Assembly (NCBI GenBank): GCA_045807725.1
Contig: JBJMGV010000126.1
Location: forward strand, 28,802-92,801
Direction of reading: 5' to 3'
DNA length: 64,000 bases
Source of the DNA: Blastocatellia bacterium
GTDB taxonomy: Bacteria > Acidobacteriota > Blastocatellia > UBA7656
Under the pieces are notes generated by a model. The model ran no database searches and was not told the origin of the DNA. It saw nothing but the letters and a program-made list of their open reading frames with translations. This document shows positions 4,165 to 53,284 of the stretch, piece after piece. A program made the position numbers and the translations under genes. Numbering within the stretch: the stretch's first letter is position 1; each line of letters starts with the position of its first letter.

Positions 4165-4277
4165 AAAACAGCGGCCAATGACCAGTGGCCAGTGGCCAGT
4201 TTTTGGTTTCAGAGCTTAATCTTGCTTCAATAAAGGATCATGAGAACGACAGCAATTTTACTGGCCACTGGCCACTA

Positions 4278-4285
<8 letters not shown>
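4165..4285. repeat. Heptamer-array palindrome, (CCAGTGG)n ... core ... (CCACTGG)n
   Basis: gaccagtggccagtggccagt ... tggccactggccactac flanking a ~65-bp AT-richer core, between the HIT gene and murA. Confidence 0.6.
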
Positions 4286-5534
<1,249 letters not shown>

Positions 5535-19309: not shown

Positions 19310-19437
19310 AATCGCTTCTCGCCATTAAGAATTATGCAGCCATTCACGCCGCTAAGGATTATGCAACCGTTCGCGCCGCTAAGAACTATGCAGCCGTTCG
19401 CGCCGCTAAGGATTATGCAGCCGTTCACGCCGCGTAG
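19310..19437. repeat. 30-bp tandem repeat x4
   Basis: attatgcagccattcacgccgctaagg(a/a)... repeated four times with few substitutions. Confidence 0.75.
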
Positions 19438-19544
19438 CGGCGGGTGAGTTTAGCCAGGCGTTTCAACGCCTGGAAGTCAACGGCGCGGTGATCGCGTCGC
19501 GTCAGCGACGCCTGAATGCCCGCCGATTCAAGCGTCGCTGACGC

Positions 19545-19735
19545 GACGCCATCGCATTATGCTGATAGGTGCAGGCACTAAAGTACCTGCCTAAATTCAT
19601 CTGCCGCTACGCGGCTTTCAATGCAGGCATTGAAATGCCTGCCTAAATTCAATTGCCGCTACGCGGCTTTCGGTGCAGACACTAAAGTGCCTGCTTAAAT
19701 TCATCTGCCGCTACGCGGCTTGTTGAAATGATTTT
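19545..19735. repeat. ~58-bp tandem repeat x3, each unit containing a hairpin
   Basis: ggtgcaggcactaaagtacctgcctaaattcatctgccgctacgcggctttc x3; internal gcaggca-N6-tgcctgc stem. Confidence 0.75.
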
Positions 19736-26246: not shown

Positions 26247-26350
26247 AGTCAGTGGTCAGTGGTCAGTGGTCAGTGGTCAGTGGTTGGCATTCAGTATAAT
26301 GATGATCGCGCTAATAAATCTTACACTGAATACTGCCTACTGCTTCCTGT
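26247..26350. repeat. Heptamer array (GTGGTCA x5) plus AT-richer core
   Basis: agtcagtggtcagtggtcagtggtcagtggtcagtggttggc... followed by ctgcctactg repeats. Confidence 0.5.
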
Positions 26351-26357
26351 CTACTGC

Positions 26358-28634
26358 CTACTTGATTGCATTGGCCGCTCCTCTTTGAAATGTCAGCACG
26401 TAGACGCCGCTTGAAAAGCTGCCGGCGTAAACGCGGTCGCGTTCAAACGGGTCGAACGACAGCGTCCAGACGCGCGTGGTCGGCAGCTCCGCGCCGCCGA
26501 TGGCGTCGAGCCGCTCCCACGAATAGCCTTTGTCGGTCGAGCGGTAGACGCCGCCCTTCGAGTATTCGGCGACCAGCACTTCGTCGGGGTTGGCCGGGTT
26601 GAAGACGACCGACGTGAAGTCGCCCGCCGGCAATCCACCGCCGCGCCGCACCCACGTGCGCCCGCCGTTGGTCGAGCGAAAGAGGTTCTGGTTAGTGCCC
26701 AGCAGAATCGTCGCCGGATCATTGGGCGCTTGCGCGACCGACTTCACCGACATATCACTGGGGCCGCGATCAATGTGCGCCCAGGTCGCGCCGCCGTCTT
26801 CAGAAATGTAGAGGCCCGCCTTTGTGCCGACCAGTATGCGCTTCGGCGTGTCCTTATGCGTCGAGACCGAATAGACGCGCCCATTCGCGTCGTAGCCGAC
26901 GAGGTAGACTTTCTCCCAGCCTTTGCTTTCATCAAAGGTGCGGTAAAGCCCGTCCATCGTCGCCGCCAGCAGCCCGCGCCGGCCTTCGCTGTCGCTGAAG
27001 CTGGTGATGTCGTCCACCTGCTTCGTCAATTCAAACAGCGACGGGCCGAGCGGTTCTGTAGGCTCGACTACTTTAGGCTTCTTCGGCGCGCGCGATGATT
27101 TCGATGACTTCTTTGACCCGCGCGACTTCTGTGCAACCATCACGACCGGCACGGCGCGGTATTGGCCGACGCCTTGCAAAGCGGGCGCGGCAGGCGCGTC
27201 GTTAGCGGCGCGGCGACGGCGCGTCGGCTTCTTCACCGGCTTCTCGGGCTTCGTCGTTTGATTGCCGACGAATGACCAGCTTGCGCCTCGGTCGCTTGAG
27301 CGGAAGACACCGGTGTTCGTGCCCGCATAGATCACGCTCGGGTTGTCGGGCATTTGATAAAAGGCGAACACGTCGCGTGCGCCTAAGCCGCGTGACGACG
27401 ATTGCCACGATTCGCCGCCGTCGCCGGAAACAAAGATGCTGCCGGCGGAGCCATCGTGAAAGACGCTGGCGAGCAAACGCCCGCGCTCCTGCGCGTCGGG
27501 CAGTATCGCCAGAATGTGCCGATGAATGAAGCCGATGTTGGCTTCGGCGAAATCGTCGCCGAGGTTGTTGGATTCGAGCACGCCGTAATCATCCGTAGCA
27601 ATCAGCACGCGCTGTGGCTTGTCGGGCGTGACGATGACCGAACGAATGACGTGGCTCTTCGAGGTAATGAGCATCCAGCGCTTGCCGCCGTCTTTGCTGC
27701 GCCACAGTCCTTCGCTCGTGCCGGCGAAGATGATGTTCGGATTGGTCGGGTGCGGCAACAGGTAATAGGTGCGCCGCGCCGTGAAAGGGATGCCCGGTAT
27801 CTTGTTCCAGTGCTCGCCACCCGTATTCGAGCGATAGATGCCGCTGCACGCGTTCAGATAAACAAGGTCGGGATTGGTCGGATCAACCGAGACGCCGAAG
27901 ATGTCGGAATCATCAATGACGCCGTTGCCCTTATAGCCGGTCTGCTTCCAGGTGACGCCGCCGTCTGTGGTCTTCCAGGGCAGGTGCCACGTGCCGACGT
28001 AAATCTGATTAGGATCGCGCGGGTGTATGGCGATGGACTCGATGTTGTGAATCTCTTTGTCGCCTTCGGGCGAGATGCGCTGCCACGTCTTGCCGGCGTC
28101 GGTCGAGCGCCAGGTTCCGTTCAGCTTCGGGTCGTCGTTGGCGCTGCCGGCCATCACGATGTTGGAATCTGACGGCGCGATAGCCAAGCTACGGACGGAT
28201 AACTTCTTCGTCCCGTCGAGCAGCTTCCAGTGCTCGCCGCCGTCTTCGCTCTTAAAGACGCCGCCGTCCACATCGCGCGCCACCGCCCACGCGCCGACAT
28301 AAAGCGTGCGGCTGTCGTGCGGGTCGATGGCAATGCTGTCTATCGAGAGGCCGCGCTCGCCTATCCCCGGCTTCACCCTGCGCCAAGTACGCGCGCCATC
28401 GGTCGAGCGAAAGAGCTGGCCGTCGCTCGTGCCGAGATAGAGCAGGTTGCTATTGTCGGGCGCAGCCACCAGCGTGCGCACGTCGCCGCCCCACGGGCCG
28501 GTAACTTCCCACTGACGAATCTCTTTCTCGTTTGTAGTGGTAGTTACGTCGTGCGGGCCGTCGGCTCTGGCGGGCACGAGCGACACTGCGAGCGCAAAGA
28601 CTAACGCGAGGAGGGGGAGGTTTCGGATTCTCAT
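26358..28634 (-). CDS. Secreted BNR/Asp-box repeat protein (sortilin/Ycf48-like beta-propeller) with Lys-rich insert
   Basis: Signal peptide; repeated S-x-D-x-G-x-T-W motifs (STDGARTW, SEDGGEHW, STDAGKTW, TTDGGVTW, SKDGGKRW, STNGGRTW...). Confidence 0.8.
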   Translation of the reverse strand: MRIRNLPLLALVFALAVSLVPARADGPHDVTTTTNEKEIRQWEVTGPWGGDVRTLVAAPDNSNLLYLGTSDGQLFRSTDGARTWRRVKPGIGERGLSIDSIAIDPHDSRTLYVGAWAVARDVDGGVFKSEDGGEHWKLLDGTKKLSVRSLAIAPSDSNIVMAGSANDDPKLNGTWRSTDAGKTWQRISPEGDKEIHNIESIAIHPRDPNQIYVGTWHLPWKTTDGGVTWKQTGYKGNGVIDDSDIFGVSVDPTNPDLVYLNACSGIYRSNTGGEHWNKIPGIPFTARRTYYLLPHPTNPNIIFAGTSEGLWRSKDGGKRWMLITSKSHVIRSVIVTPDKPQRVLIATDDYGVLESNNLGDDFAEANIGFIHRHILAILPDAQERGRLLASVFHDGSAGSIFVSGDGGESWQSSSRGLGARDVFAFYQMPDNPSVIYAGTNTGVFRSSDRGASWSFVGNQTTKPEKPVKKPTRRRRAANDAPAAPALQGVGQYRAVPVVMVAQKSRGSKKSSKSSRAPKKPKVVEPTEPLGPSLFELTKQVDDITSFSDSEGRRGLLAATMDGLYRTFDESKGWEKVYLVGYDANGRVYSVSTHKDTPKRILVGTKAGLYISEDGGATWAHIDRGPSDMSVKSVAQAPNDPATILLGTNQNLFRSTNGGRTWVRRGGGLPAGDFTSVVFNPANPDEVLVAEYSKGGVYRSTDKGYSWERLDAIGGAELPTTRVWTLSFDPFERDRVYAGSFSSGVYVLTFQRGAANAIK

Positions 28635-28929
28635 TGACTACTGCGACTCCTTACATTGGGAATCTTAGCACACGGGCCGCAAGCGCCCGAAGCTAGATTC
28701 ATGATCGGCCTTTCGATTGAGGATGAACTATACAATGGCGGGCCGACGAGCGGAAGGCGGAAAGGCGCAATGTCGAAAAGTTGCAAGACAAGCGCGCGTT
28801 TCGAGCCGCAAAACTGAACCGGGAATGCGTTAATGCGCGGCTGACGCGCGCGGTCAATCGCGCCCCGGCGCGGTCGCCGCGACATCACGCCGCGACATCA
28901 AGTTGCTGTGGCTTCCGGCCTGCCACCGC

Positions 28930-30841: not shown

Positions 30842-30915
30842 GCGCCCGTAGCTCAGTCGGATAGAGCATCGGTCTTCTAAACCGAGGGTCGCAGGTTCGA
30901 GTCCTGCCGGGCGTA
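30842..30915 (+). tRNA. tRNA-Arg (anticodon TCT)
   Basis: GCGCCCGTAGCTCAGTCGGATAGAGCATCGGTCTTCTAAACCGAGGGTCGCAGGTTCGAGTCCTGCCGGGCGTA; cloverleaf with a 7-bp acceptor stem, a TPsiC-loop TTCGAGT and an anticodon loop CTTCTAA. Confidence 0.85.
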
Positions 30916-31133: not shown

Positions 31134-31177
31134 CATCTACACTGAATCCTGTATCCTGAATCCTGTATCCTGTCTTT

Positions 31178-31930: not shown

Positions 31931-34255
31931 TCATTCATTCGAGCCGTCGGTGCGTGAAGCGAGGCGGGCGATCACCAGCGCCAGTTCAAGCGGGTCGGCG
32001 GGCTTGGCGACGTGCATCTGGTAGCCGGCGGAGATGGCGCGCAAGCGGTCTTCGGCGCGCGCGTAAGCGGTCAACGCTACCGCCGGTGTTTTGCCGCGCG
32101 TCGGCGCAAGCTCACGAATCTGCCGCATCAGTTGATAGCCATCTTCGCCCGGCATCTCGATGTCGCTGATGATAATGTTGGGCGGCCATTCCTGAAACAC
32201 GCCGACCGCTTCCCGGCTCGACGCGCACGCCCGCACCTGCGCGCCGAATTGTTCGATCATAAGGCGCAACATATCGCGCGTGTCCGGCTCGTCGTCAACG
32301 ATCAGCACGCGCAGGCCCGAAAGGTCGGGCGCATTCTGCGACGACGTGAGCGGCGGACTCATCGCGGCGCGCTCCGCGTCGTAGCCTTCGCTGTGCAATG
32401 CCATCAACGGCAGTCTCACGGTAAAGACCGCGCCGTGATCTTGCCCGGCGCTCGCCGCCGTCACCGTGCCGCCGTGCAGCTCGATTAAATGGCGAACAAT
32501 CGCCAGCCCCAGCCCCAGCCCGCCGTGTATGCGCGTGCTGGTCGAGTCGCCTTGACGGAAGCGATCAAAGACGAACGGCAGCAGCTCGCTTTGTATGCCC
32601 TGGCCGGTGTCTGTGACGACGATTTCGGCGTGCGAGTCGGCCTGTTGCAATCGCACCTCTATGCGCCCGCCGCGCGGCGTGAACTTGACGGCGTTCGACA
32701 GCAGATTCCAGACCACCTGTTGCAAGCGGTTGCCGTCGCCCGACACCGGCGCGGTGTGCGGATCGAGAATCGTCTGCACACGTATCTCTTTGGCGTCCGC
32801 CGCCGGGCGAACGGAATCGAGCGCCGATTCAATGATCGAGGCGATATCTATGGGCTGCACGTTCAATCGCAGCTTGCCGGTGATGATGCGCGACACGTCG
32901 AGGATGTCTTCGACGATCTGCGCCTGCACCTTGGCGTTGCGCTCGATGGTTTCGAGCGCGCGCTCCGTCGTCGCCTCGTCGAAGCTGCGGTTGCGCAGCA
33001 TATGTGACCAGCCGACGATGGCATTCAACGGCGTGCGTAGCTCGTGCGAGACGGTGGCGAGAAACTCGTCCTTCAAACGATTGGCATCTTCGGCCAGCGC
33101 CCGCGCCCGCTGCGCTTCGGCCAGCAACCGTTCGCGCTCACGTTCGGCCTGCTTGCGCTCGCTGATGTCGCGGGCAATGGTCGAAGCGCCGGTGAGCGTG
33201 CCATTCGGCCCTTTGATCGGCGAGATGGTCAGCGCTACGTCAACTCGCTCGCCGCTTTTCTTGACGCGAATCGTTTCGTAATGATGAACACGATTGCCGC
33301 TTCTGAGCTGTTCCAGGATGCGGTCAATGTCGTCCTGTTCGGGATCGACCAACAGGCGTATGTGCTTGCCGACGACCTCTTCGGCGCGATAGCCATAGAG
33401 CCGTTCAGCGCCCGTGTTCCAACTGACGATGGTGCCGTCGAGTCGCTTGCCGATGATGGCGTCTTCGGACGATTCGACAATCGAGGCGACGAAGCTGAGC
33501 GCCTCTTCGACGCGGCGGCGCTCACTGATGTCGCGGAAGACGAGCACGACGCCCGACAACTGGCCCTGATCATCCTTGATCGGCGCGCCGCTATCATCAA
33601 TCGGAACATCAGAGCCGTCTTTCCGAATCAGCACTGTGTGATTGGCCAGCCCGACGATGACGCCCTCGCGCAGCACCTTGTCAACCGGACTTTCGACCGG
33701 CTGGCGCGTCCCTTCATTGACAATGACGAAGACCTCGGCGAGGGGCCGGCCTATCGCTTCGCCGCGCCTCCATCCGGTCAGCGATTCAGCCACAGGGTTG
33801 ATGAAGGTGATGCGCCCTTCGGTGTCGGTGGCGATCACCGCGTCGCCGATGCTGCCCAGCGTGATGGCCAGCAGCTTGCGGTTCTCGCTGAGCGCGGCGG
33901 TGTTCTCTTCGCCGCGCCGCCGTGCGCGGTGCAAGCCTTCGCTTAAAGCCGAGATGGCGCTGCAAACGAACAGGAAGGTCAACAGGCCGATGGCCGTGCC
34001 TGCGTCACGCACGAACCACGAATTATCCGGCGGCAGCCAGCGATAGAGCGAGATGATGCTGCCGAGCAGCGTCGCCAGCAATCCCGGCCCCAGTCCGCCA
34101 AACCAGGCGCTTAAGGCGACGCCGAGAAAGAACGTGATGAAGGGAAATTCGTTGCCGATGACCGGCTCAAGCGCCCAGCGCAGCAAGGCCGCCATCGCCG
34201 TCACCACGACGGCAACGCCATAACATAACAGGGGCGAGCGCGCTTGTTTGGCCAT
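31931..34255 (-). CDS. Hybrid sensor histidine kinase/response regulator: DUF4118-like membrane domain, 2x PAS, HisKA, HATPase and REC
   Basis: ...LATVSHELRTPLNAI... H-box; G1/G2 boxes; C-terminal LIVDDEPDTRD...D receiver. Confidence 0.9.
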   Translation of the reverse strand: MAKQARSPLLCYGVAVVVTAMAALLRWALEPVIGNEFPFITFFLGVALSAWFGGLGPGLLATLLGSIISLYRWLPPDNSWFVRDAGTAIGLLTFLFVCSAISALSEGLHRARRRGEENTAALSENRKLLAITLGSIGDAVIATDTEGRITFINPVAESLTGWRRGEAIGRPLAEVFVIVNEGTRQPVESPVDKVLREGVIVGLANHTVLIRKDGSDVPIDDSGAPIKDDQGQLSGVVLVFRDISERRRVEEALSFVASIVESSEDAIIGKRLDGTIVSWNTGAERLYGYRAEEVVGKHIRLLVDPEQDDIDRILEQLRSGNRVHHYETIRVKKSGERVDVALTISPIKGPNGTLTGASTIARDISERKQAERERERLLAEAQRARALAEDANRLKDEFLATVSHELRTPLNAIVGWSHMLRNRSFDEATTERALETIERNAKVQAQIVEDILDVSRIITGKLRLNVQPIDIASIIESALDSVRPAADAKEIRVQTILDPHTAPVSGDGNRLQQVVWNLLSNAVKFTPRGGRIEVRLQQADSHAEIVVTDTGQGIQSELLPFVFDRFRQGDSTSTRIHGGLGLGLAIVRHLIELHGGTVTAASAGQDHGAVFTVRLPLMALHSEGYDAERAAMSPPLTSSQNAPDLSGLRVLIVDDEPDTRDMLRLMIEQFGAQVRACASSREAVGVFQEWPPNIIISDIEMPGEDGYQLMRQIRELAPTRGKTPAVALTAYARAEDRLRAISAGYQMHVAKPADPLELALVIARLASRTDGSNE

Positions 34256-34764
34256 AGCTATCGTAAAGCGATCATCGACGCCTCGCCCTGCGCGCACACT
34301 GACGATTATAGAAAGAGAAAGCGACGTGCGCTGCGCATAGCAACACAGCGACCACGACCGCTAAGGTCAAGCGGTGCTAGCGCAATGAGGGCGAAGAATA
34401 CGATGATGCTCACGCAAACAAACTGAGCGGCGGGGTTCTTGCTGTGTCCACGTTCAGCGACCCCCGACCAGCGCAAAGATTAGCAGACTGACGAGAAACC
34501 ATCCAAGAAAATTGCGCGCCGGAACGCCTCAGTACGCGCCCCGCATTCGTTCAGTCGTCGCGCCTTCTCGCTTGATGAGAGGGGAAACGTGGCAACGATC
34601 ACGTTCGGGTAACGCACGGCGGCATAGATTAGCTCGACGCGAGCGCGCCTGGCGGGCGGCAAGAATCGCGTGACGATGAAGAGGCTGGCGCTGTAAGCAA
34701 GCAAGCCTCTGCCGGCGCGACTCCACCTGCTCTCGTTCAAGGATGTAGGTCTTCACAGCCATCG

Positions 34765-35688
34765 CTAATCAAGCAGGTCGGCGAGCGCGGCGCCCAGCGT
34801 CTCGAAGCGAAAGCGGTAGCCGGCGGCGATGACCGCGCGGGGCAGAACGCGCTGGCTTGAGAGCAACACGGCAGCCATCTCGCCCATCGCCGCGCGCAAG
34901 CCGAACTCCGGCACAGGCACAAAGGCGGGGCGATGCAGCGCGCCGGCGAGTTGGCGCGTGAACTCATCGTTCGTTACCGGCGCGGGCGCTGTGCCATTGA
35001 CCGGCCCTTTGATCGCCGCGTTCGCCAGCGCGTAACGGTAGATGCCAACGATGTCGGCGATGTGAATCCAGGGCAGCCACTGACGGCCACTGCCGAGCTT
35101 GCCGCCGAGTCCGAGCTTGAATGGCAGCATCATCTTTTCGAGCGCGCCGCCTTCGCGGCTCAGAACAACACCTGTGCGCGCCAGCACAACGCGAATGCCT
35201 GCGGCCTTGGCCTGCTCGGCCTCGCGCTCCCACTCGATACAGACTTCAGGCATAAAGCCTTCGCCCGGCGGCGACAGTTCATCAAGCGATTCGTCGCCGC
35301 GATCTCCGTAAAAGCCTATGGCTGAGCTGCTGATGAAGACGGCAGGCTTCGTAGGCATAGCGCGCAGGCCGCTGACCAGATGCCGCGTGCTGAGAACGCG
35401 TGAATCGCGTATGCGCCGCTTCTGTTCGTCGCTCCAGCGTCGCGCCGCGATAGGCTCGCCCGCCAGGTGAATCACCGCGTCAACGCCGATCATCACGTCA
35501 TCATCGGGAGGCCCGCCGAGCGCGTCCCATCGGCGCATCTCTGTGACCGGCACGCCGCGCGCGTTTTCGGGCGAGCGCGATAACCCAATGACGGTGTGGC
35601 CATCGTCGAGCAGAGATTGGCAGAGGTGGCGACCGATCAACCCGGTCGCTCCCGTCACCAGAATTCGCGTCGCTTTCGGCTCGCTCAC
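34765..35688 (-). CDS. TIGR01777/YfcH-family NAD-dependent epimerase/dehydratase (DUF1731 C-terminus)
   Basis: ILVTGATGLIGRHL Rossmann motif; ...WIHIADIV... Confidence 0.85.
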   Translation of the reverse strand: MSEPKATRILVTGATGLIGRHLCQSLLDDGHTVIGLSRSPENARGVPVTEMRRWDALGGPPDDDVMIGVDAVIHLAGEPIAARRWSDEQKRRIRDSRVLSTRHLVSGLRAMPTKPAVFISSSAIGFYGDRGDESLDELSPPGEGFMPEVCIEWEREAEQAKAAGIRVVLARTGVVLSREGGALEKMMLPFKLGLGGKLGSGRQWLPWIHIADIVGIYRYALANAAIKGPVNGTAPAPVTNDEFTRQLAGALHRPAFVPVPEFGLRAAMGEMAAVLLSSQRVLPRAVIAAGYRFRFETLGAALADLLD

Positions 35689-35759: not shown

Positions 35760-35845
35760 TTAAATTGTCAAGATTTTTTCTAGACCAAAGCTGGACAAAT
35801 CATTGAATTTGCGTTAAGTTGTTCAAGAATTATCTTGACAGCTCA
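35760..35845. promoter_or_regulatory. Divergent promoter region with three TGTCAAGA-like repeats (candidate operator) and a TTGACA -35 box
   Basis: aattgtcaagatttt, agttgttcaagaatt, and the inverted tatcttgaca, upstream of the MerR/B12 regulator gene. Confidence 0.35.
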
Positions 35846-35860
35846 GAGAGGCTACTCAGA

Positions 35861-36778
35861 ATGCAGGAGATGACCACGGAAGAATCACCATCGCAGGTCG
35901 GCAAGTATCGCATCGGCACAGTGACACGATTGACGGGTCTGTCGGCGGACGTGGTGCGCGTGTGGGAGCGGCGCTATGGCGCGATCCGCCCGCAACGCAG
36001 CGAGGCGGGCACACGGCTCTATTCCGACGCCGACATCGCGCGGCTCAGGCGTTTGCGGCAAGCGGTCGAGAAGGGCTACAGCATCAGCCGGGCGGCGCGG
36101 CTTTCGGACGACGAGCTGACCGCCGCCGTCAGCGTGGTCGCGCAGGCGGCGGACGCCTCCGGCCCTTACGCGCTCGTACGCGAGCGGTTCCTGGCTGCCA
36201 TCAAGCAGATGGATGTAGTGACGGCAGACCTGGAGATGAGCCGCGCGGCAACGCTCTTTCCGGCGCGCGACCTGATCAATCAAATCGTCACGCCGTTGCT
36301 GGCGGAGATCGGCGAGCGCTGGGCACACCGCGAGTTCGGCGTCGCGCACGAACACGTCGCCACCAATCTGCTGCGCAACCTGCTCAGCTCGCTCATACGG
36401 CTCTACCCGCCCGACCGCCACGCCGAGACCATAGTGCTGGCGACGCCCGCCGGCGAGCGGCACGAATTCGGCATCCTTCTGGCGGCGCTGGTGGCGGCGA
36501 CGCGGGGCTGGCGCGTGGTTTATGTCGGCGCTGATCTGCCCGCCGCCGAAATCGCTTATGCGATGCGGCTGACGAAGTCGCGTTACCTGGCGCTGAGCCT
36601 GGTCAACGAGCACCCGGAAGCAGCAGAGGAGATGAACGCGCTCGCTCAACAACTATCAACCGGCGTGCGCGTATGGGTCGGCGGCGGCGAAGCCATCAAG
36701 TACCGCGACCAGCTTCATCAACTGAACTGGATTCTCATCCGCGACCTCGACGACCTCGACGACCGCTTGCGAAGGTAG
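35861..36778 (+). CDS. MerR-family transcriptional regulator with C-terminal cobalamin-binding domain (CarH/LitR-like)
   Basis: YRIGTVTRLTGLSADVVRVWERRYG HTH, followed by a B12-binding Rossmann-like domain (...VVYVGADLP...). Confidence 0.8.
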   Translation: MQEMTTEESPSQVGKYRIGTVTRLTGLSADVVRVWERRYGAIRPQRSEAGTRLYSDADIARLRRLRQAVEKGYSISRAARLSDDELTAAVSVVAQAADASGPYALVRERFLAAIKQMDVVTADLEMSRAATLFPARDLINQIVTPLLAEIGERWAHREFGVAHEHVATNLLRNLLSSLIRLYPPDRHAETIVLATPAGERHEFGILLAALVAATRGWRVVYVGADLPAAEIAYAMRLTKSRYLALSLVNEHPEAAEEMNALAQQLSTGVRVWVGGGEAIKYRDQLHQLNWILIRDLDDLDDRLRR

Positions 36779-36782
36779 TAGT

Positions 36783-36998
36783 CAGAGCGTATCTGAGAAG
36801 CCCTGAAGGGGCGCGATTCAATAGCCCAGCCCAACGGGCTGGGTACACCCAGCGACCATTCGGCAAGCCCTGAAAGGGCGTAATAGGTGATCGGTTATTG
36901 CGCCCTTTCAGGGCTTGGCGGTTAGCCCCGCCGCTCACCCAGGGCGCTGCCCTGGGCTGTCGAATCCCGCCCCTTCAGGGCTTCTCAGATACGCTCTA
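36783..36998. repeat. ~220-bp MITE-like palindromic element, copy A
   Basis: Terminal inverted repeats agagcgtatctgagaagccctgaaggggcg ... cgccccttcagggcttctcagatacgctctatag; internal aagccctgaaagggcg hairpins; about 90% identical to the inverted copy at 53003-53222. Confidence 0.65.
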
Positions 36999-36999
36999 T

Positions 37000-37335
37000 A
37001 GTTCACGATGCAATAGTTGATGCAAGCTCCGTCAGGAGCGCAATGTTTATAGTAACGCGGGCGGTTTAATCTTCAAGCTCCGTCAGGAGCGCGATGTTTA
37101 TAGCCAACGATGCAATAGATCAAACAAGCTCCGTTAGGAGCGCGATGTTCATAGCTCACGATGCCACAGATGATGCAAGCTCCGTTAGGAGCGCAATGTT
37201 TATAGATATGGCAGAAGGATGTGACGAAGCCCCGTAGGGGCGCGATGTTGACATCACGCTCCTGACGGAGCTTGCTTCTTCTATTGCATCGGTAACTATA
37301 AACATTGCGCTCCTGACGGAGCTTGGGGAACTATC
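37000..37335. repeat. ~51-bp tandem repeat array (4-5 units plus inverted units)
   Basis: Unit gatgcaagctccgtcaggagcgcaatgtttatag plus a ~21-bp variable linker; each unit has a gctcc-gtca-ggagc hairpin. Confidence 0.7.
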
Positions 37336-37445
37336 AGCTATCAACTGATCACTGGCCACTAACCAATGACCACTGACAACCGGCCAGTGGCCATTGACAA
37401 CCGGCCACTGACTACTGGCCACTGGCCAGTGGTCACCACTCCTGG
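37336..37445. repeat. (CCAGTGG/CCACTGG)-type heptamer array
   Basis: cactggccactaaccaatgaccactgacaaccggccagtggccattgacaaccggccactgactactggccactggccagtggtcacc. Confidence 0.6.
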
Positions 37446-37505
37446 CACATTCGTTGCTCCTTCACGACTGGCTGAAGCAATTTGCATTGAAAGCGAGCAA
37501 AGTGG

Positions 37506-38633
37506 ATGGCCAGCACGGTACAGGCGATTGATTCTGTTAAGCCGAAGTCGAATGGCGCGCACTCGACGGCGGTAAAGACGGCGCGCGAGTTGGTTGAGCA
37601 CGGCCAGCGCGCGCGGTGGTGGCGGCGGCGCGGCACGAAACAGAAAGGTTTTTGGTATGAAGATTACAAAGGCTGCCGCATTAACGATCAATCCCAGCTT
37701 GAGCGCATACGGGCGCTTGTCATTCCACCGGCCTGGACTCACGTCCGCATCGCGCCTTCTCCGCGCAGTCGCTTGCAAGTGGTCGGCATAGACACGGCAG
37801 GCCGCATTCAGTATAAGTACCACCCGTCTTTCGCGGCGCGACAACAGCAGAAGAAATACGCCAAGATCGAACGCTTCGGCGAAGCGCTGCCGGCCTTGCG
37901 TCGCGTGACCAATGAGCACATCGCGCTCAATGGCTTTCCGCGTGAGCGCGTGCTGGCCATCATCATTCGTTTAATCAACGATCTCTACCTGCGCGTCGGC
38001 TCCGAGATGAGCGTCAAGCGTTACCGCACCTATGGCGTGACGACGCTGCGCAATCGCCACCTTGATATCAGGCGTGGTGGGCAACTCGTCTTTAGCTTCG
38101 TCGGCAAACATCACATACGCCACCGCCGCATCATCGTGGATGAAGAACTGGCGACGGTGATGCGCGACTTGAAGGCGTTGGGCGGGCCGAAGCTGTTCGA
38201 GTACACCGACGACAACGGCAAGATTAAACCCATCACGCCGCGCGACGTGAACGACTACATCAAAGCGGCGGCGGGTCCGGAGTTTTCCGCGAAAGACTTT
38301 CGCACGTGGGGCGGCTCGCTGCTGGCGGCGATACGGCTGGCCGAGATCGGGCAGGCCGAAAACGAGCGACAACTGAAGCGCAACATCGTGCAGGCGGTCA
38401 AGCAAGTCGCCGAGCACCTCGGTAATACGCCGACCGTCTGCCGCAGTTGCTACATTCACCCGGCGGTCATCGAGCGGTACAACGAAGGCGTGACGCTCGA
38501 AGCCTTCAGGCCAAAACGCAGCCGCCGCATACGTCGCTTGCAGCCTGAATACGAGCCTGAGGAGTTAGCGTTGCTGAAGCTCTTTCAGACGAGCGGCAGG
38601 GCGATGAATGTGACCGAGAAGCAAGCGGCCTGA
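37506..38633 (+). CDS. DNA topoisomerase IB (poxvirus-like bacterial TopIB)
   Basis: ...KDFRTWGG... and ...CRSCYIHP... (catalytic Tyr) motifs; the size (375 aa) fits bacterial TopIB. Confidence 0.8.
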   Translation: MASTVQAIDSVKPKSNGAHSTAVKTARELVEHGQRARWWRRRGTKQKGFWYEDYKGCRINDQSQLERIRALVIPPAWTHVRIAPSPRSRLQVVGIDTAGRIQYKYHPSFAARQQQKKYAKIERFGEALPALRRVTNEHIALNGFPRERVLAIIIRLINDLYLRVGSEMSVKRYRTYGVTTLRNRHLDIRRGGQLVFSFVGKHHIRHRRIIVDEELATVMRDLKALGGPKLFEYTDDNGKIKPITPRDVNDYIKAAAGPEFSAKDFRTWGGSLLAAIRLAEIGQAENERQLKRNIVQAVKQVAEHLGNTPTVCRSCYIHPAVIERYNEGVTLEAFRPKRSRRIRRLQPEYEPEELALLKLFQTSGRAMNVTEKQAA

Positions 38634-38655
38634 CGGGCGCGCACGGTTCGATGAA

Positions 38656-38695
38656 GGCAAAAAGGCCGTAGCGCGAACCTCTTCGCGCTACGGCC
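38656..38695 (-). terminator. Strong hairpin terminator between convergent topIB and DUF4383 genes
   Basis: ggccgtagcgcgaa-cctc-ttcgcgctacggcc, a 14-bp stem with a T-tract on the minus strand. Confidence 0.6.
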
Positions 38696-38719
38696 TCGCT
38701 GACTAATTCGCTGTGATTG

Positions 38720-39136
38720 CTAACTGCGAGCGTCTGCGAGCCGCGCCGCTGTCATAAAGCCGGCGATCAGGAAGATGACGCCCAGCGCGATGTGAATGAC
38801 GTGATCCATCGTGCCGAGTTCGAGCATGCCGGGAATGACACGCAGCAGGCGGTCATCGTGCGGGCCGGGGACGCCGTGCGACGGCTCACCCGCATGGCCA
38901 GCAATGAAGCCGACAACGCCGAGCAGGCCATACACCGCGCCGAAGATGATGCAGAACAATCGCGCCTGCGCCAGTGTGCCTTTCAATCCGAAGTAGAGCG
39001 ACACCGCACCCGATACCAGATGCACGATGTCGTGCGTAACGCTCAGGTGAGTGCCCATCAGGCCGGGCGCAGCGAACCCCACGAGTCCCACAAGAATGAA
39101 CACAATCCCTAAGATGGTTGCGATCCTTTTTGCCAT
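38720..39136 (-). CDS. DUF4383-family membrane protein
   Basis: Four TM helices, ...HDIVHLVSGA...GHAGEPSHG... pattern. Confidence 0.65.
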   Translation of the reverse strand: MAKRIATILGIVFILVGLVGFAAPGLMGTHLSVTHDIVHLVSGAVSLYFGLKGTLAQARLFCIIFGAVYGLLGVVGFIAGHAGEPSHGVPGPHDDRLLRVIPGMLELGTMDHVIHIALGVIFLIAGFMTAARLADARS

Positions 39137-39249
39137 ATTCTTCTCCTTTCGAGTTAGCAGTCAAGCAGGCTCTCGCCTGCCGTTAATGAGAAACCGAAGA
39201 TGGCTTATGAGTACGGGTGCAAAAGTCTCGAATCATAAATCTCATTCGT

Positions 39250-39627
39250 TCACCGCTCGCCTTCGACCTGCTTGATCTCGACGCGCTCGCGTTTAATGTC
39301 GAGCCGCAACCTGCCATAGAGACTCATATACTGATTGGCGATCCACACCAGCGCGAAGCCGCCGATCAGGTAGCCGCGCCAATCCTCGTAGAGCAATGTG
39401 TAGCGCGTGATGATGAGAAAGAAAGCCGTCACATAATGGCTGAAACAGTACTCGCAGGTGAACAGGTAAAAAAATTTTCGCTCGATCAGTCGCCGGCATC
39501 TCTCGCTCCGCTTGACGCAGTACTCGCGCGGCTCGCGAAAGACTTCTTCGTGCGTCACCGTCCACGCGATGCAGGCGATGGGCACGGCCAGAATGAACAG
39601 CCAGGCGATCTGCAAACCTAAAGGCAT
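39250..39627 (-). CDS. Hypothetical small membrane protein with Cys-rich segment
   Basis: TM helices at both ends; YCVKRSERC...FTCEYCFSH. Confidence 0.45.
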   Translation of the reverse strand: MPLGLQIAWLFILAVPIACIAWTVTHEEVFREPREYCVKRSERCRRLIERKFFYLFTCEYCFSHYVTAFFLIITRYTLLYEDWRGYLIGGFALVWIANQYMSLYGRLRLDIKRERVEIKQVEGER

Positions 39628-41139: not shown

Positions 41140-41340
41140 AAACAGGATTCAGGAGTCAGGATTCAGGAGTCAGAAGTCAGAAGAGAGAAGTCAGAAGTCA
41201 GGAGTCAGAATTCAGAATGAATGAGGAAGTCGGCTAACGCCTCTGCCTCTATTCTAACTTCTAAACGCTCCCTTCCTTTTCCATTCTGACTTCTGACTTC
41301 TGACTCCTGTCTTCCTCCCTCTTGTCCCTCTTCACTTCAA
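41140..41340. repeat. Heptamer-array palindrome, (AGTCAGA/AGTCAGG)n ... core ... (TCTGACT)n
   Basis: caggagtcaggattcaggagtcagaagtcagaag...gaagtcagaagtcaggagtcagaattcaga ... ttctgacttctgacttctgactcctg. Confidence 0.6.
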
Positions 41341-48847: not shown

Positions 48848-48935
48848 GGAAGAAAGTGATAAGTGATGAGTGATGAGTAATGAGTGATGAGTAAGAAGCA
48901 TTGAGGGCTGCTCTACACTCATCACTCATCACTGC
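48848..48935. repeat. Heptamer-array palindrome, (GTGATGA)n ... (CTCATCA)n
   Basis: gtgataagtgatgagtgatgagtaatgagtgatgagtaag ... ctacactcatcactcatcactg. Confidence 0.6.
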
Positions 48936-50983: not shown

Positions 50984-51404
50984 CCAGTGGTCAGTGGTCA
51001 GTGGTCAGTTGATAGTTGATAGTTGACAGTTGATTGTTGATTGTTGTGAGTTGTGAGCGGTGAGTTGATAGTTGTGAGTTGATAGTTTCCCAAGCTCCGT
51101 CAGGAGCGCAATGTTTATAGATATAGCTGAAGGATGTGACGAAGCTCCGTCAGGAGCGAGATGTTTATAGTTACCGATGCAATAGATGATGCAAGCTCCG
51201 TCAGGAGCGGGATGTTGACATTGCGCCCCTACGGGGCTTCGTCCTTTCTATCAGCCATTTCTATAAACAGGTCGTCCCTACGGGACTCACTGGTCACTGG
51301 CAACTCATAACTATCAGCTCACAACTATCAGCTCACAAGTATCACCTATCAACTATCAACTGACCACTGGCCACTAGCCACTAGTCACTGATCACTAACC
51401 ACTG
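50984..51404. repeat. Composite palindromic repeat region: heptamer arrays flanking ~51-bp tandem units
   Basis: (GTGGTCA)n, (GTTGATA/GTTGTGA)n, three caagctccgtcaggagcg...tttatag units, an inverted unit, then mirrored heptamer arrays. Confidence 0.7.
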
Positions 51405-52343
51405 ATGAACGATCTTCTTCACATCAATGAAAGAGTGCGCCGCGCGATAGAGACGAATCGAGCCGTGGTGGCGCTTGAGTCAACCGTGATCGCACACGGC
51501 TTGCCGCGCCCGCTCAATCTCGAAACCGCGCACGCCTGCGAAGCCGCCGTGACGCGTGAAGGCGCAAGTCCGGCGACCATCGGCATCGTCGCCGGGCGAT
51601 TGACGGTCGGGTTGAGTGACGAAGAGGTCGCGCGCTTTGGCGACGGGCAAGCGCCGGACGGCGGCGCGATTGAAAAGGTCGGCTTGAATAACATGGCCGG
51701 CGTCATCGAGCGTCGCGCCTGGGGCGCAACTACCGTAGCCGCGACGATGCGGATTGCCGCGCTTGCCGGCCTGCGAGTCTTTGCCACAGGCGGCATCGGC
51801 GGCATTCATCGCGGCGCGGGCGAAACGTTCGACGTATCCGCAGACCTGACTGCGCTCGGTCGCCTGCCGCTGGTCTGCGTCTGCGCCGGCGCGAAAGCGA
51901 TTCTCGATCTACCCAAGACCGTCGAGTACCTGGAAACGCTCGGTGTGCCGATTGTAGGTTATCGCACAAACGAGTTCCCTGCCTTCTACTCCCCGACGAG
52001 CGGCCTCGGCGTAGACATCAAAGTGGATTCGCCGGAAGAAGCCGCCCGTGTGGCGTTGAATCACTGGCGCACGGGTGGCGCGTCGGCAGTGCTGGTCTGC
52101 GCTCCTGTGCCTGAGCCGCACGCGATGGCTCACGAAGAAGTTGACTGCGCTGTCGAGCAAGCCATCGTCTTAGCCGAACGCAGCGGCATTCGCGGCAAAG
52201 CATTAACGCCTTTCCTGCTGGCCCGCTTGAAAGAGTTGACCGCAGGCCACACGCTCGATGCGAATCGCGCCTTGCTCGTGAATAACGCGGAGATCGCCGC
52301 GCAAATTGCCGTGCATCTGGTCAATCTGTCGCGGCAAGGTTGA
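51405..52343 (+). CDS. psuG: Pseudouridine-5'-phosphate glycosidase
   Basis: ...VVALESTVIAHGLPRP...FATGGIGGIHRG... PsuG signature. Confidence 0.9.
   Translation: MNDLLHINERVRRAIETNRAVVALESTVIAHGLPRPLNLETAHACEAAVTREGASPATIGIVAGRLTVGLSDEEVARFGDGQAPDGGAIEKVGLNNMAGVIERRAWGATTVAATMRIAALAGLRVFATGGIGGIHRGAGETFDVSADLTALGRLPLVCVCAGAKAILDLPKTVEYLETLGVPIVGYRTNEFPAFYSPTSGLGVDIKVDSPEEAARVALNHWRTGGASAVLVCAPVPEPHAMAHEEVDCAVEQAIVLAERSGIRGKALTPFLLARLKELTAGHTLDANRALLVNNAEIAAQIAVHLVNLSRQG

Positions 52344-52917: not shown

Positions 52918-53284
<367 letters not shown>

Follow-up and report, generated by a model that had tools for sequence, protein, structure and literature searches.

The stretch of DNA analysed here (the window; 64,000 nucleotides, positions 28,802 to 92,801 of contig JBJMGV010000126.1 in assembly GCA_045807725.1 from a soil-dwelling Blastocatellia bacterium of the Acidobacteriota) contains at positions 37506-38633 of the plus strand a gene for a type IB DNA topoisomerase (TopIB) of 375 amino acids. 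On its upstream side and on the same strand lies the gene for a regulator of the CarH/LitR type (35819-36778), in which Pfam profiles recognize a MerR helix-turn-helix and a B12-binding domain (MerR-B12 regulator in the following), and on its downstream side a convergently oriented DUF4383 gene. The 727 bp between the stop codon of the MerR-B12 gene and the ATG of TopIB are rich in hairpins and hold three kinds of repeats, followed by a predicted sigma-54 promoter. The explanation favored here, to which we assign a probability of about 0.85, is that the gene encodes a working topoisomerase, is vertically inherited, would be driven by a sigma-54-type promoter of its own, and has the repeats only as bystanders. 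An earlier note on this DNA had instead proposed that the gene arrived with the local repeats or acts on them.

The assignment as TopIB is based on profile matches, on similarity to solved structures and on mapping of the catalytic residues. PF01028 (Topoisom_I, the catalytic core) matches residues 110-327 with E=1.3e-38 and 133.1 bits (cut-off 23.7), and the bacterial N-terminal domain PF21338 (Top1B_N_bact) matches residues 48-96 over the full length of the profile (4.1e-18, 65.3 bits, cut-off 27). In a sequence search the closest solved structure is TopIB of D. radiodurans (PDB 2f4q, E=1.1e-68, query residues 38-348), a match that would settle the fold, followed by the structures of the variola and vaccinia enzymes (PDB 2h7f and 1a41; E=1e-12 and 7e-9), with which the catalytic core aligns. 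Counting along these alignments equates R163 with R137 of D. radiodurans and R130 of the poxvirus enzymes, K201 with K174 and K167, K263 with K236 and K220, R266 with R239 and R223, N307 with N280 and H265, and the nucleophile Y316 with Y289 and Y274. The two motifs that the earlier note had pointed out, KDFRTWGG (residue 263) and CRSCYIHP (residue 312), are both present in the translation, the tyrosine of the second being the nucleophile, and every residue of the catalytic pentad finds its counterpart in the D. radiodurans and vaccinia proteins. The outcome by which that note would have seen its identification refuted, a lack of catalytic residues in the alignment, was therefore not observed. 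Published reference numbers agree with this mapping, except that the Lys/Arg pair of D. radiodurans is printed as 235/237 (PMC2666729), which we take to be a slip.

None of the six catalytic residues varies across an alignment of 31 orthologs, and the ratio of nonsynonymous to synonymous substitution rates (dN/dS) against three close orthologs is 0.10-0.15, which together indicate an intact TopIB under purifying selection. That the open reading frame (ORF) encodes a genuine, catalytically intact bacterial poxvirus-like TopIB is fully supported as far as a sequence can tell, and the protein is predicted to be enzymatically active. Type IB topoisomerases relax positive and negative supercoils without ATP. 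In the present enzyme the attack of Tyr316 on one DNA strand would yield a covalent 3'-phosphotyrosyl intermediate, with R163, K201, R266 and N307 stabilizing the transition state, whereupon the duplex would swivel and the strand would be resealed. A database look-up by the exact protein sequence returned no identical record; the protein is a member of a known bacterial family, of which orthologs with up to 90% identity are already public and carry this name where they are named. Past the Pfam catalytic domain the protein has an acidic C-terminal tail, QPEYEPEELALLKL (residues ~345-358, window positions 38539-38579), which is kept across Blastocatellia orthologs with Y349, E352, E353, A355 and L356 invariant and could be a partner-binding motif.

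How did the gene come to lie at this locus? A genome scan with TopIB yielded 16 loci, nearly all in metagenome-assembled genomes of Blastocatellia/Pyrinomonadaceae with 63-82% identity, and one in Chthonomonadaceae with 56% identity. At E<=1e-20 more than 6,500 relatives are found in the protein database. The best 120 have 66-90% identity, carry both TopIB domains without exception and, where an organism is given, are named DNA topoisomerase IB of Blastocatellia or Pyrinomonadaceae. The description of poxvirus-like TopIB as sporadic in bacteria, made in the earlier note, is correct at large scale but not within this lineage, where it occurs frequently (at least 120 clusters with no less than 66% identity). 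Synteny was assessed by tblastn of the neighboring proteins of the window against the genome-scan loci. The gene order is shared by 12 of these 16 loci and by all four loci from relatives at 84-90% identity (16/20), and leads from an SDR (short-chain dehydrogenase/reductase) epimerase gene (DUF1731; in the window 34765-35688 on the minus strand, divergent from the MerR-B12 gene) via the optional MerR-B12 gene, which stands beside TopIB in most syntenic loci, to TopIB, DUF4383, a gene for a 125-residue protein and on to an acetyltransferase/CoA-ligase gene. The non-syntenic loci (L009, L011, L013 and L014) are the more distant ones. In addition, the GC content of the TopIB gene (0.60) and of its third codon positions (GC3, 0.75) is the same as in the neighboring genes.

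Native composition and conserved synteny argue for vertical inheritance, and as part of the overall explanation, held with the same confidence as the whole, TopIB is very probably an old chromosomal gene of Blastocatellia and not a recent arrival, which would sit in a fixed neighborhood of SDR epimerase, CarH/LitR-type MerR-B12 regulator, TopIB and DUF4383. Horizontal arrival of the gene was rejected on these same two grounds. A phage or plasmid origin was likewise considered and set aside: plasmid homologs share less than 60% identity and reside on large secondary replicons of other phyla, and phage matches are weak and partial only, both being uninformative for this locus.

Transcription of TopIB seems to have its own signal. 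The -24/-12 consensus of sigma-54 promoters is TGGCAC-N5-TTGC, and the sequence TGGCACATTCGTTGCT at 37443-37458 of the plus strand, which starts 63 nt upstream of the TopIB ATG, fits it exactly in both elements and in their spacing. It is the sole strict match to TGGCA[CT]-N5-TTGC on either strand of the 64-kb window. In the 283 kb that comprise the window and related loci the strict pattern occurs 17 times, in 16 cases directly upstream of TopIB and on the same strand. The motif is found in all 16 syntenic loci, on the correct strand and, where measured, ~45-65 nt from the start codon. In a motif-centered alignment of 15 loci, without the duplicate L019, conservation reaches 99% in the ten bases of the core, as compared to 41% in the 25 nt before the motif and 53% in the 25 nt after it. 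Moreover, the motif is kept in L001, L002 and L008, three loci that lack the MerR-B12 gene and have a divergently oriented gene upstream of TopIB, and a scan of 36700-39300 for sigma-70 promoters gave no site on the plus strand. Because the motif is unique and conserved, persists without the MerR-B12 gene and is not accompanied by a sigma-70-like site, we infer that an autonomous, activator-dependent promoter of the sigma-54 type drives TopIB, with the use of sigma-54 itself being a prediction. Transcription would be expected to start near 37468-37470.

Alternatively, TGGCAC-N5-TTGC may not be a functional sigma-54 promoter, and TopIB may be co-transcribed with the CarH/LitR-type gene or read from an unrecognized housekeeping promoter. 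Several observations weigh against a sigma-54 promoter and lend some weight to this alternative. Scans of the window and of 283 kb of related loci revealed neither an rpoN box nor the GAFTGA signature of an enhancer-binding protein, and thus neither rpoN nor a gene for an activator; near the predicted promoter no upstream activator site could be recognized; and no convincing motif was found in the four distant non-syntenic loci, nor at a TopIB locus on a Granulicella plasmid. In L021, furthermore, the MerR-B12 and TopIB genes are 69 bp apart with no terminator noted between them. Co-transcription is, however, hard to reconcile with the loci in which the MerR-B12 gene is missing and the upstream gene points away, and in the window with the 727 bp of hairpin-rich DNA that separate both genes, while a chance motif is countered by the conservation of its core (0.99 versus 0.41-0.53 in the flanks) and by the correct strand and distance to the ATG in every syntenic locus. 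We therefore regard a non-functional motif as rather unlikely and retain the sigma-54-type promoter as the preferred interpretation.

With such a promoter TopIB would be transcribed alone from a conserved site ~45-65 nt upstream of its start codon, and as a promoter of the sigma-54 type should be silent without its activator, expression would be off unless an enhancer-binding activator fires. The promoter sequence suggests a tightly gated, activator-dependent expression of TopIB. A need for tight control would fit the observation that TopIB of P. aeruginosa is toxic on expression in E. coli (PMC2666729). In an incidental mention within a transcriptome study of Bradyrhizobium, TopIB is one of the genes whose expression changed in a double rpoN mutant only (PMC13207237). 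No paper was found that describes a sigma-54 promoter for a TopIB gene, and a search for literature on sigma-54 in Acidobacteria gave nothing usable; as far as literature was found, a sigma-54-type promoter for TopIB is undescribed, and no other element of this locus has even modest novelty.

What could the activating condition be? In L018-L020, from relatives at ~90% identity (L018 1-4662, L020 1-4785), the MerR-B12 gene is divergent from an operon encoding the epimerase, an unknown protein, a photolyase, phytoene synthase and phytoene desaturase, which we take to be a typical light-response cluster. In the window a gene for a PAS hybrid histidine kinase (31931-34297) stands in place of the photolyase and carotenoid genes. 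The adjoining light-response cluster makes a stress-related role of TopIB conceivable. It could be imagined, at somewhat less than even odds, that TopIB of Blastocatellia is a non-housekeeping gene gated by sigma-54 and an activator, which lies in a conserved block beside a B12-dependent light regulator of the CarH/LitR type, and whose light-cluster context in some genomes (L018-L020) would point to a role in DNA topology or DNA damage under stress, for example by light or UV; the inducing condition is a conjectural part of this proposal. If true, a stress-gated TopIB would for the first time allow the physiological role of the bacterial enzymes to be approached from their regulation, a role that to our knowledge is not yet clear, whereas the biochemistry of these enzymes is known. 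A conserved activator-dependent promoter would make it experimentally addressable in Acidobacteria when and why TopIB is expressed.

Two further observations concern the immediate surroundings of the promoter. The ~40-nt 5' untranslated region (5'UTR) between the -12 element and the ATG (window 37459-37505, containing ATTTGCATYGAAAGCGAGCA) is conserved among the closer relatives, as judged by comparison of the window, L001, L002, L015, L018, L020 and L021, and some of them have in it a CTCGCTT/AAGCGAG inverted repeat that the window shows only in disrupted form. In L011 (5093-5842) and L013 (5015-5791), both non-syntenic Pyrinomonadaceae loci without the sigma-54 motif, the gene directly upstream of TopIB encodes a coiled-coil and zinc-ribbon protein of the CT398/HP0958 family. 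This family includes an RpoN chaperone of Helicobacter; its adjacency to TopIB may be a coincidence.

The spacer upstream of the predicted promoter is filled with repeats. Just past the MerR-B12 stop codon comes a palindromic element of ~214-218 bp (36784-36997) that resembles a miniature inverted-repeat transposable element (MITE) and has 102-nt arms of 79% complementarity. Both arms contain a match to Acido-Lenti-1 (RF01687) above its gathering score of 37, one at 36799-36843 on the minus strand (41.0 bits) and one at 36938-36982 on the plus strand (40.9 bits). It is followed at 36997-37325 by an array of 51-bp stem-loop units with the core CAAGCTCCGTCAGGAGCGCAATGTTTATAG, which belong to a dispersed repeat family and are arranged as four direct copies (36997-37205) and two inverted copies (37251-37325) on either side of a central variant stem-loop (37226-37250), each unit carrying a short GC stem-loop and then AATGTTTATAG. 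Heptamer arrays occupy 37326-37440, first of the AACTATC type and then of the CCACTGG/CCAGTGG type (37344-37431). They end 2 nt before the -24 element and represent the right flank of a composite element family that is also found at 50985-51405. The motifs of the palindrome, the 51-bp unit and the heptamers are far above chance, as shuffled sequences are expected to give 0.00-0.13 matches. The arrangement reported in the earlier note, with a MITE-like element, a 51-bp array and a CCAGTGG array directly upstream of TopIB, is thereby confirmed for all three.

Comparison with related loci suggests how the spacer was filled. In L021 the distance from the MerR-B12 stop codon to the TopIB ATG is 69 bp and free of repeats; the 215 bp of L020 contain one inverted pair of heptamer arrays and nothing else; the 338 bp of L018 contain heptamers, 51-bp-type units and a central palindrome; and the window has 727 bp. 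In every case of this series the repeats lie upstream of the conserved promoter and 5'UTR. The series of 69, 215, 338 and 727 bp therefore reads as an empty site followed by successive insertions. L007, L010 and L012 have short spacers in which motif and heptamer scans found no repeats; L010 nonetheless shows heptamer-like repeats beside the promoter. The repeat content varies even among genomes with ~90% identical TopIB proteins. In the preferred explanation, the MITE with its Acido-Lenti-1 modules, the 51-bp arrays and the heptamer arrays would have been inserted between the MerR-B12 stop codon and the TopIB promoter as a lineage-specific pile-up of dispersed intergenic elements, with no specific functional tie to TopIB.

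The same families occur elsewhere. In the window the 51-bp unit with flanking heptamer arrays recurs at 50985-51405 (51-bp copies at 51091-51216), and a second copy of the palindromic element, in opposite orientation and ~93% identical as estimated by eye from the alignment, lies at ~53005-53230. This second copy has TATA on both flanks, and the copy at TopIB has TA or TATA on one flank only. With terminal inverted repeats, small size, absence of coding capacity and a near-identical second copy the palindrome has the hallmarks of a MITE-like element. The genes beside the other repeat sites are unrelated to TopIB and encode an NYN-domain and an Indigoidine_A-like (PsuG-like) protein, Ogt and cytochrome c peroxidase, a HIT protein and EPSP synthase, and SucC and a BNR protein. 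Furthermore, the 51-bp core is present in at least 120 soil-metagenome contigs, and TopIB is encoded in none of 80 fetched metagenome loci with the 51-bp unit (335 kb; many on short contigs, the longer flank having a median of 1.7 kb), a result that is supportive rather than exhaustive.

Could TopIB nevertheless have been brought in as cargo with the adjacent repeats, or could the enzyme process them by cleavage at CCCTT or by resolution of cruciforms? Such a link would imply a topoisomerase associated with mobile or repeat DNA. The repeats do abut the gene, and large plasmids and secondary replicons often carry TopIB homologs (378 records, each with less than 60% identity). In addition, poxvirus TopIB cleaves at the pentamer CCCTT (PMC2666729), of which there are four copies in the spacer, all in the stem-loops of the MITE, amounting to ~18 per kb in comparison to 1 per kb in the window. 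The pentamer is absent from the 51-bp and heptamer arrays, though, and its enrichment as a sign of TopIB acting on the repeats was for this reason judged coincidental; the authors who characterized the P. aeruginosa enzyme regard a merely modest preference of bacterial TopIB for CCCTT as conceivable (PMC2666729). As to transport, repeats are found only upstream of TopIB, and downstream there is just a hairpin shared with the convergent gene. A role of TopIB as cargo of a mobile element or genomic island was rejected, as there are no bracketing repeats, composition is typical, the locus is syntenic and the gene does not travel with the repeats. Arrival with the local repeat DNA is refuted by the synteny in 16 of 20 loci, the native composition, the empty orthologous site in L021 along with the short spacers of other relatives, the dispersal of the repeats beside unrelated genes and the 0 of 80 metagenome loci, and action on this DNA finds no support. 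Both versions are highly improbable, the association of the repeats with TopIB is coincidental, and the idea can be dropped.

A different possibility is that the repeats have been co-opted locally, either with their hairpins stopping read-through from the MerR-B12 gene or by providing, ahead of the sigma-54 promoter, DNA that can bend or bind the activator. That repeat modules fill the same spacer in the window, L001, L002, L015 and L018-L020, thus in at least seven related loci, counts against pure bystanders, and a local regulatory or insulating side-effect may exist. The heptamer arrays end a few nucleotides before the -24 element, terminator-like stem-loops with T-rich tails are present inside the 51-bp units, and sigma-54 promoters require DNA looping to an upstream activator, all of which would be compatible with co-option. 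On the other hand, the 69-bp spacer of L021 does without repeats and those of L007 and L012 are short, neither the sequences nor the heptamer types are constant from genome to genome, other intergenic gaps without a sigma-54 site hold the same modules, and the pattern is the one expected of neutral insertions passed on within a single sub-clade. Co-option is therefore improbable, and the repeats are best seen as neutral passengers of the spacer.

Downstream of TopIB a hairpin with a perfect stem of 15-16 bp (38662-38697) separates the convergent TopIB and DUF4383 genes. Its minimum free energy as RNA is about -38 kcal/mol on either strand (z = -3.2 and -4.5). A U-tract (UUUUU) follows the stem only on the minus strand, that of the DUF4383 gene, and a terminator scan calls this strand only, whereas CGCUGAC and no U-tract comes after the stem on the TopIB strand. 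Of the strong bidirectional terminator proposed earlier the hairpin itself thus remains, but a canonical intrinsic terminator is present only for the DUF4383 gene.

The repeat families have some interest of their own. Weinberg et al. (2010, PMC2864571) listed Acido-Lenti-1 as a probable non-coding RNA that occurs in Acidobacteria and Lentisphaerae. In the window further hits lie at 53164-53208 (plus strand) and 19428-19473 (minus strand), and the occurrence of the motif in the palindrome arms suggests that this "RNA family" is, at least in part, a module of dispersed repeats, which bears on the reading of the Rfam family. The minus-strand hit lies in an intergenic gap of 594 bp with two tandem arrays, 27 bp x 4 at 19326-19433 and 52 bp x 2.9 at 19570-19721, the latter with GC stem-loops such as TGCAGGCACTAAAGTGCCTGC, another repeat pile-up. 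Heptamer arrays arranged as inverted pairs around a core, from which long hairpins could form, are found at 4169-4290, 26248-26362, 41149-41314, 48855-48905, 50985-51405 and 52924-53275, and likewise in L011 at 4940-5005. The heptamer differs from site to site (CAGTGGC, GTCAGTG, TCAGAAG, AATGATG, AGTTGAT, GAGGTCA). Intergenic heptamer direct repeats are known from Beggiatoaceae, cyanobacteria and Bacteroidetes, with Acidobacteria unmentioned there (PMC4679880). A tRNA gene at 30842-30915 on the plus strand (Rfam, 73 bits) shares its 535-bp gap with a heptamer array at 31142-31173.

Taken together, the locus holds an ordinary ortholog from an enzyme family for which annotations in the class already exist. 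A small added value lies in the sigma-54-type promoter, which is strongly conserved, and in the likewise conserved position beside a CarH/LitR-type regulator. The prototype to which the ortholog compares most closely is TopIB of D. radiodurans (PDB 2f4q/3m4a), with which it has in common the two-domain layout, the catalytic residues and the Asn that replaces the poxvirus His. It differs from the prototype by ~37 extra N-terminal residues, by the tail QPEYEPEELALLKL, which extends past the end of the 2f4q alignment at residue 348, by its genomic context and by the predicted sigma-54 promoter; we know of no sigma-54 in Deinococcus. With the vaccinia and variola enzymes (1a41, 2h7f) the core aligns and R130, K167, K220, R223 and Y274 are matched, whereas Asn307 takes the position of His265, similarity outside the core is low and there is no sign of CCCTT specificity. 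TopIB of P. aeruginosa, which relaxes DNA, requires Mg2+ and is inert as Tyr-to-Phe mutant, belongs by its description to the same family and has the same arrangement of the active site with Asn (PMC2666729).

The predicted promoter resembles sigma-54 (RpoN) promoters in its -24/-12 elements, their spacing, position and strand, and in its conservation in orthologous loci, and is unlike those with known partners in that neither an activator nor an upstream activator site nor an rpoN gene was found in the window and related DNA. As for the repeats, both arms of the palindrome score above the gathering threshold of Acido-Lenti-1 (RF01687), which in the catalogue is a probable non-coding RNA and here appears as a module of a palindromic dispersed repeat without a tie to TopIB. 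In its terminal inverted repeats, its length too short to code and its ~93% identical second copy, the palindrome is like bacterial MITEs and repeats akin to repetitive extragenic palindromic (REP) elements.

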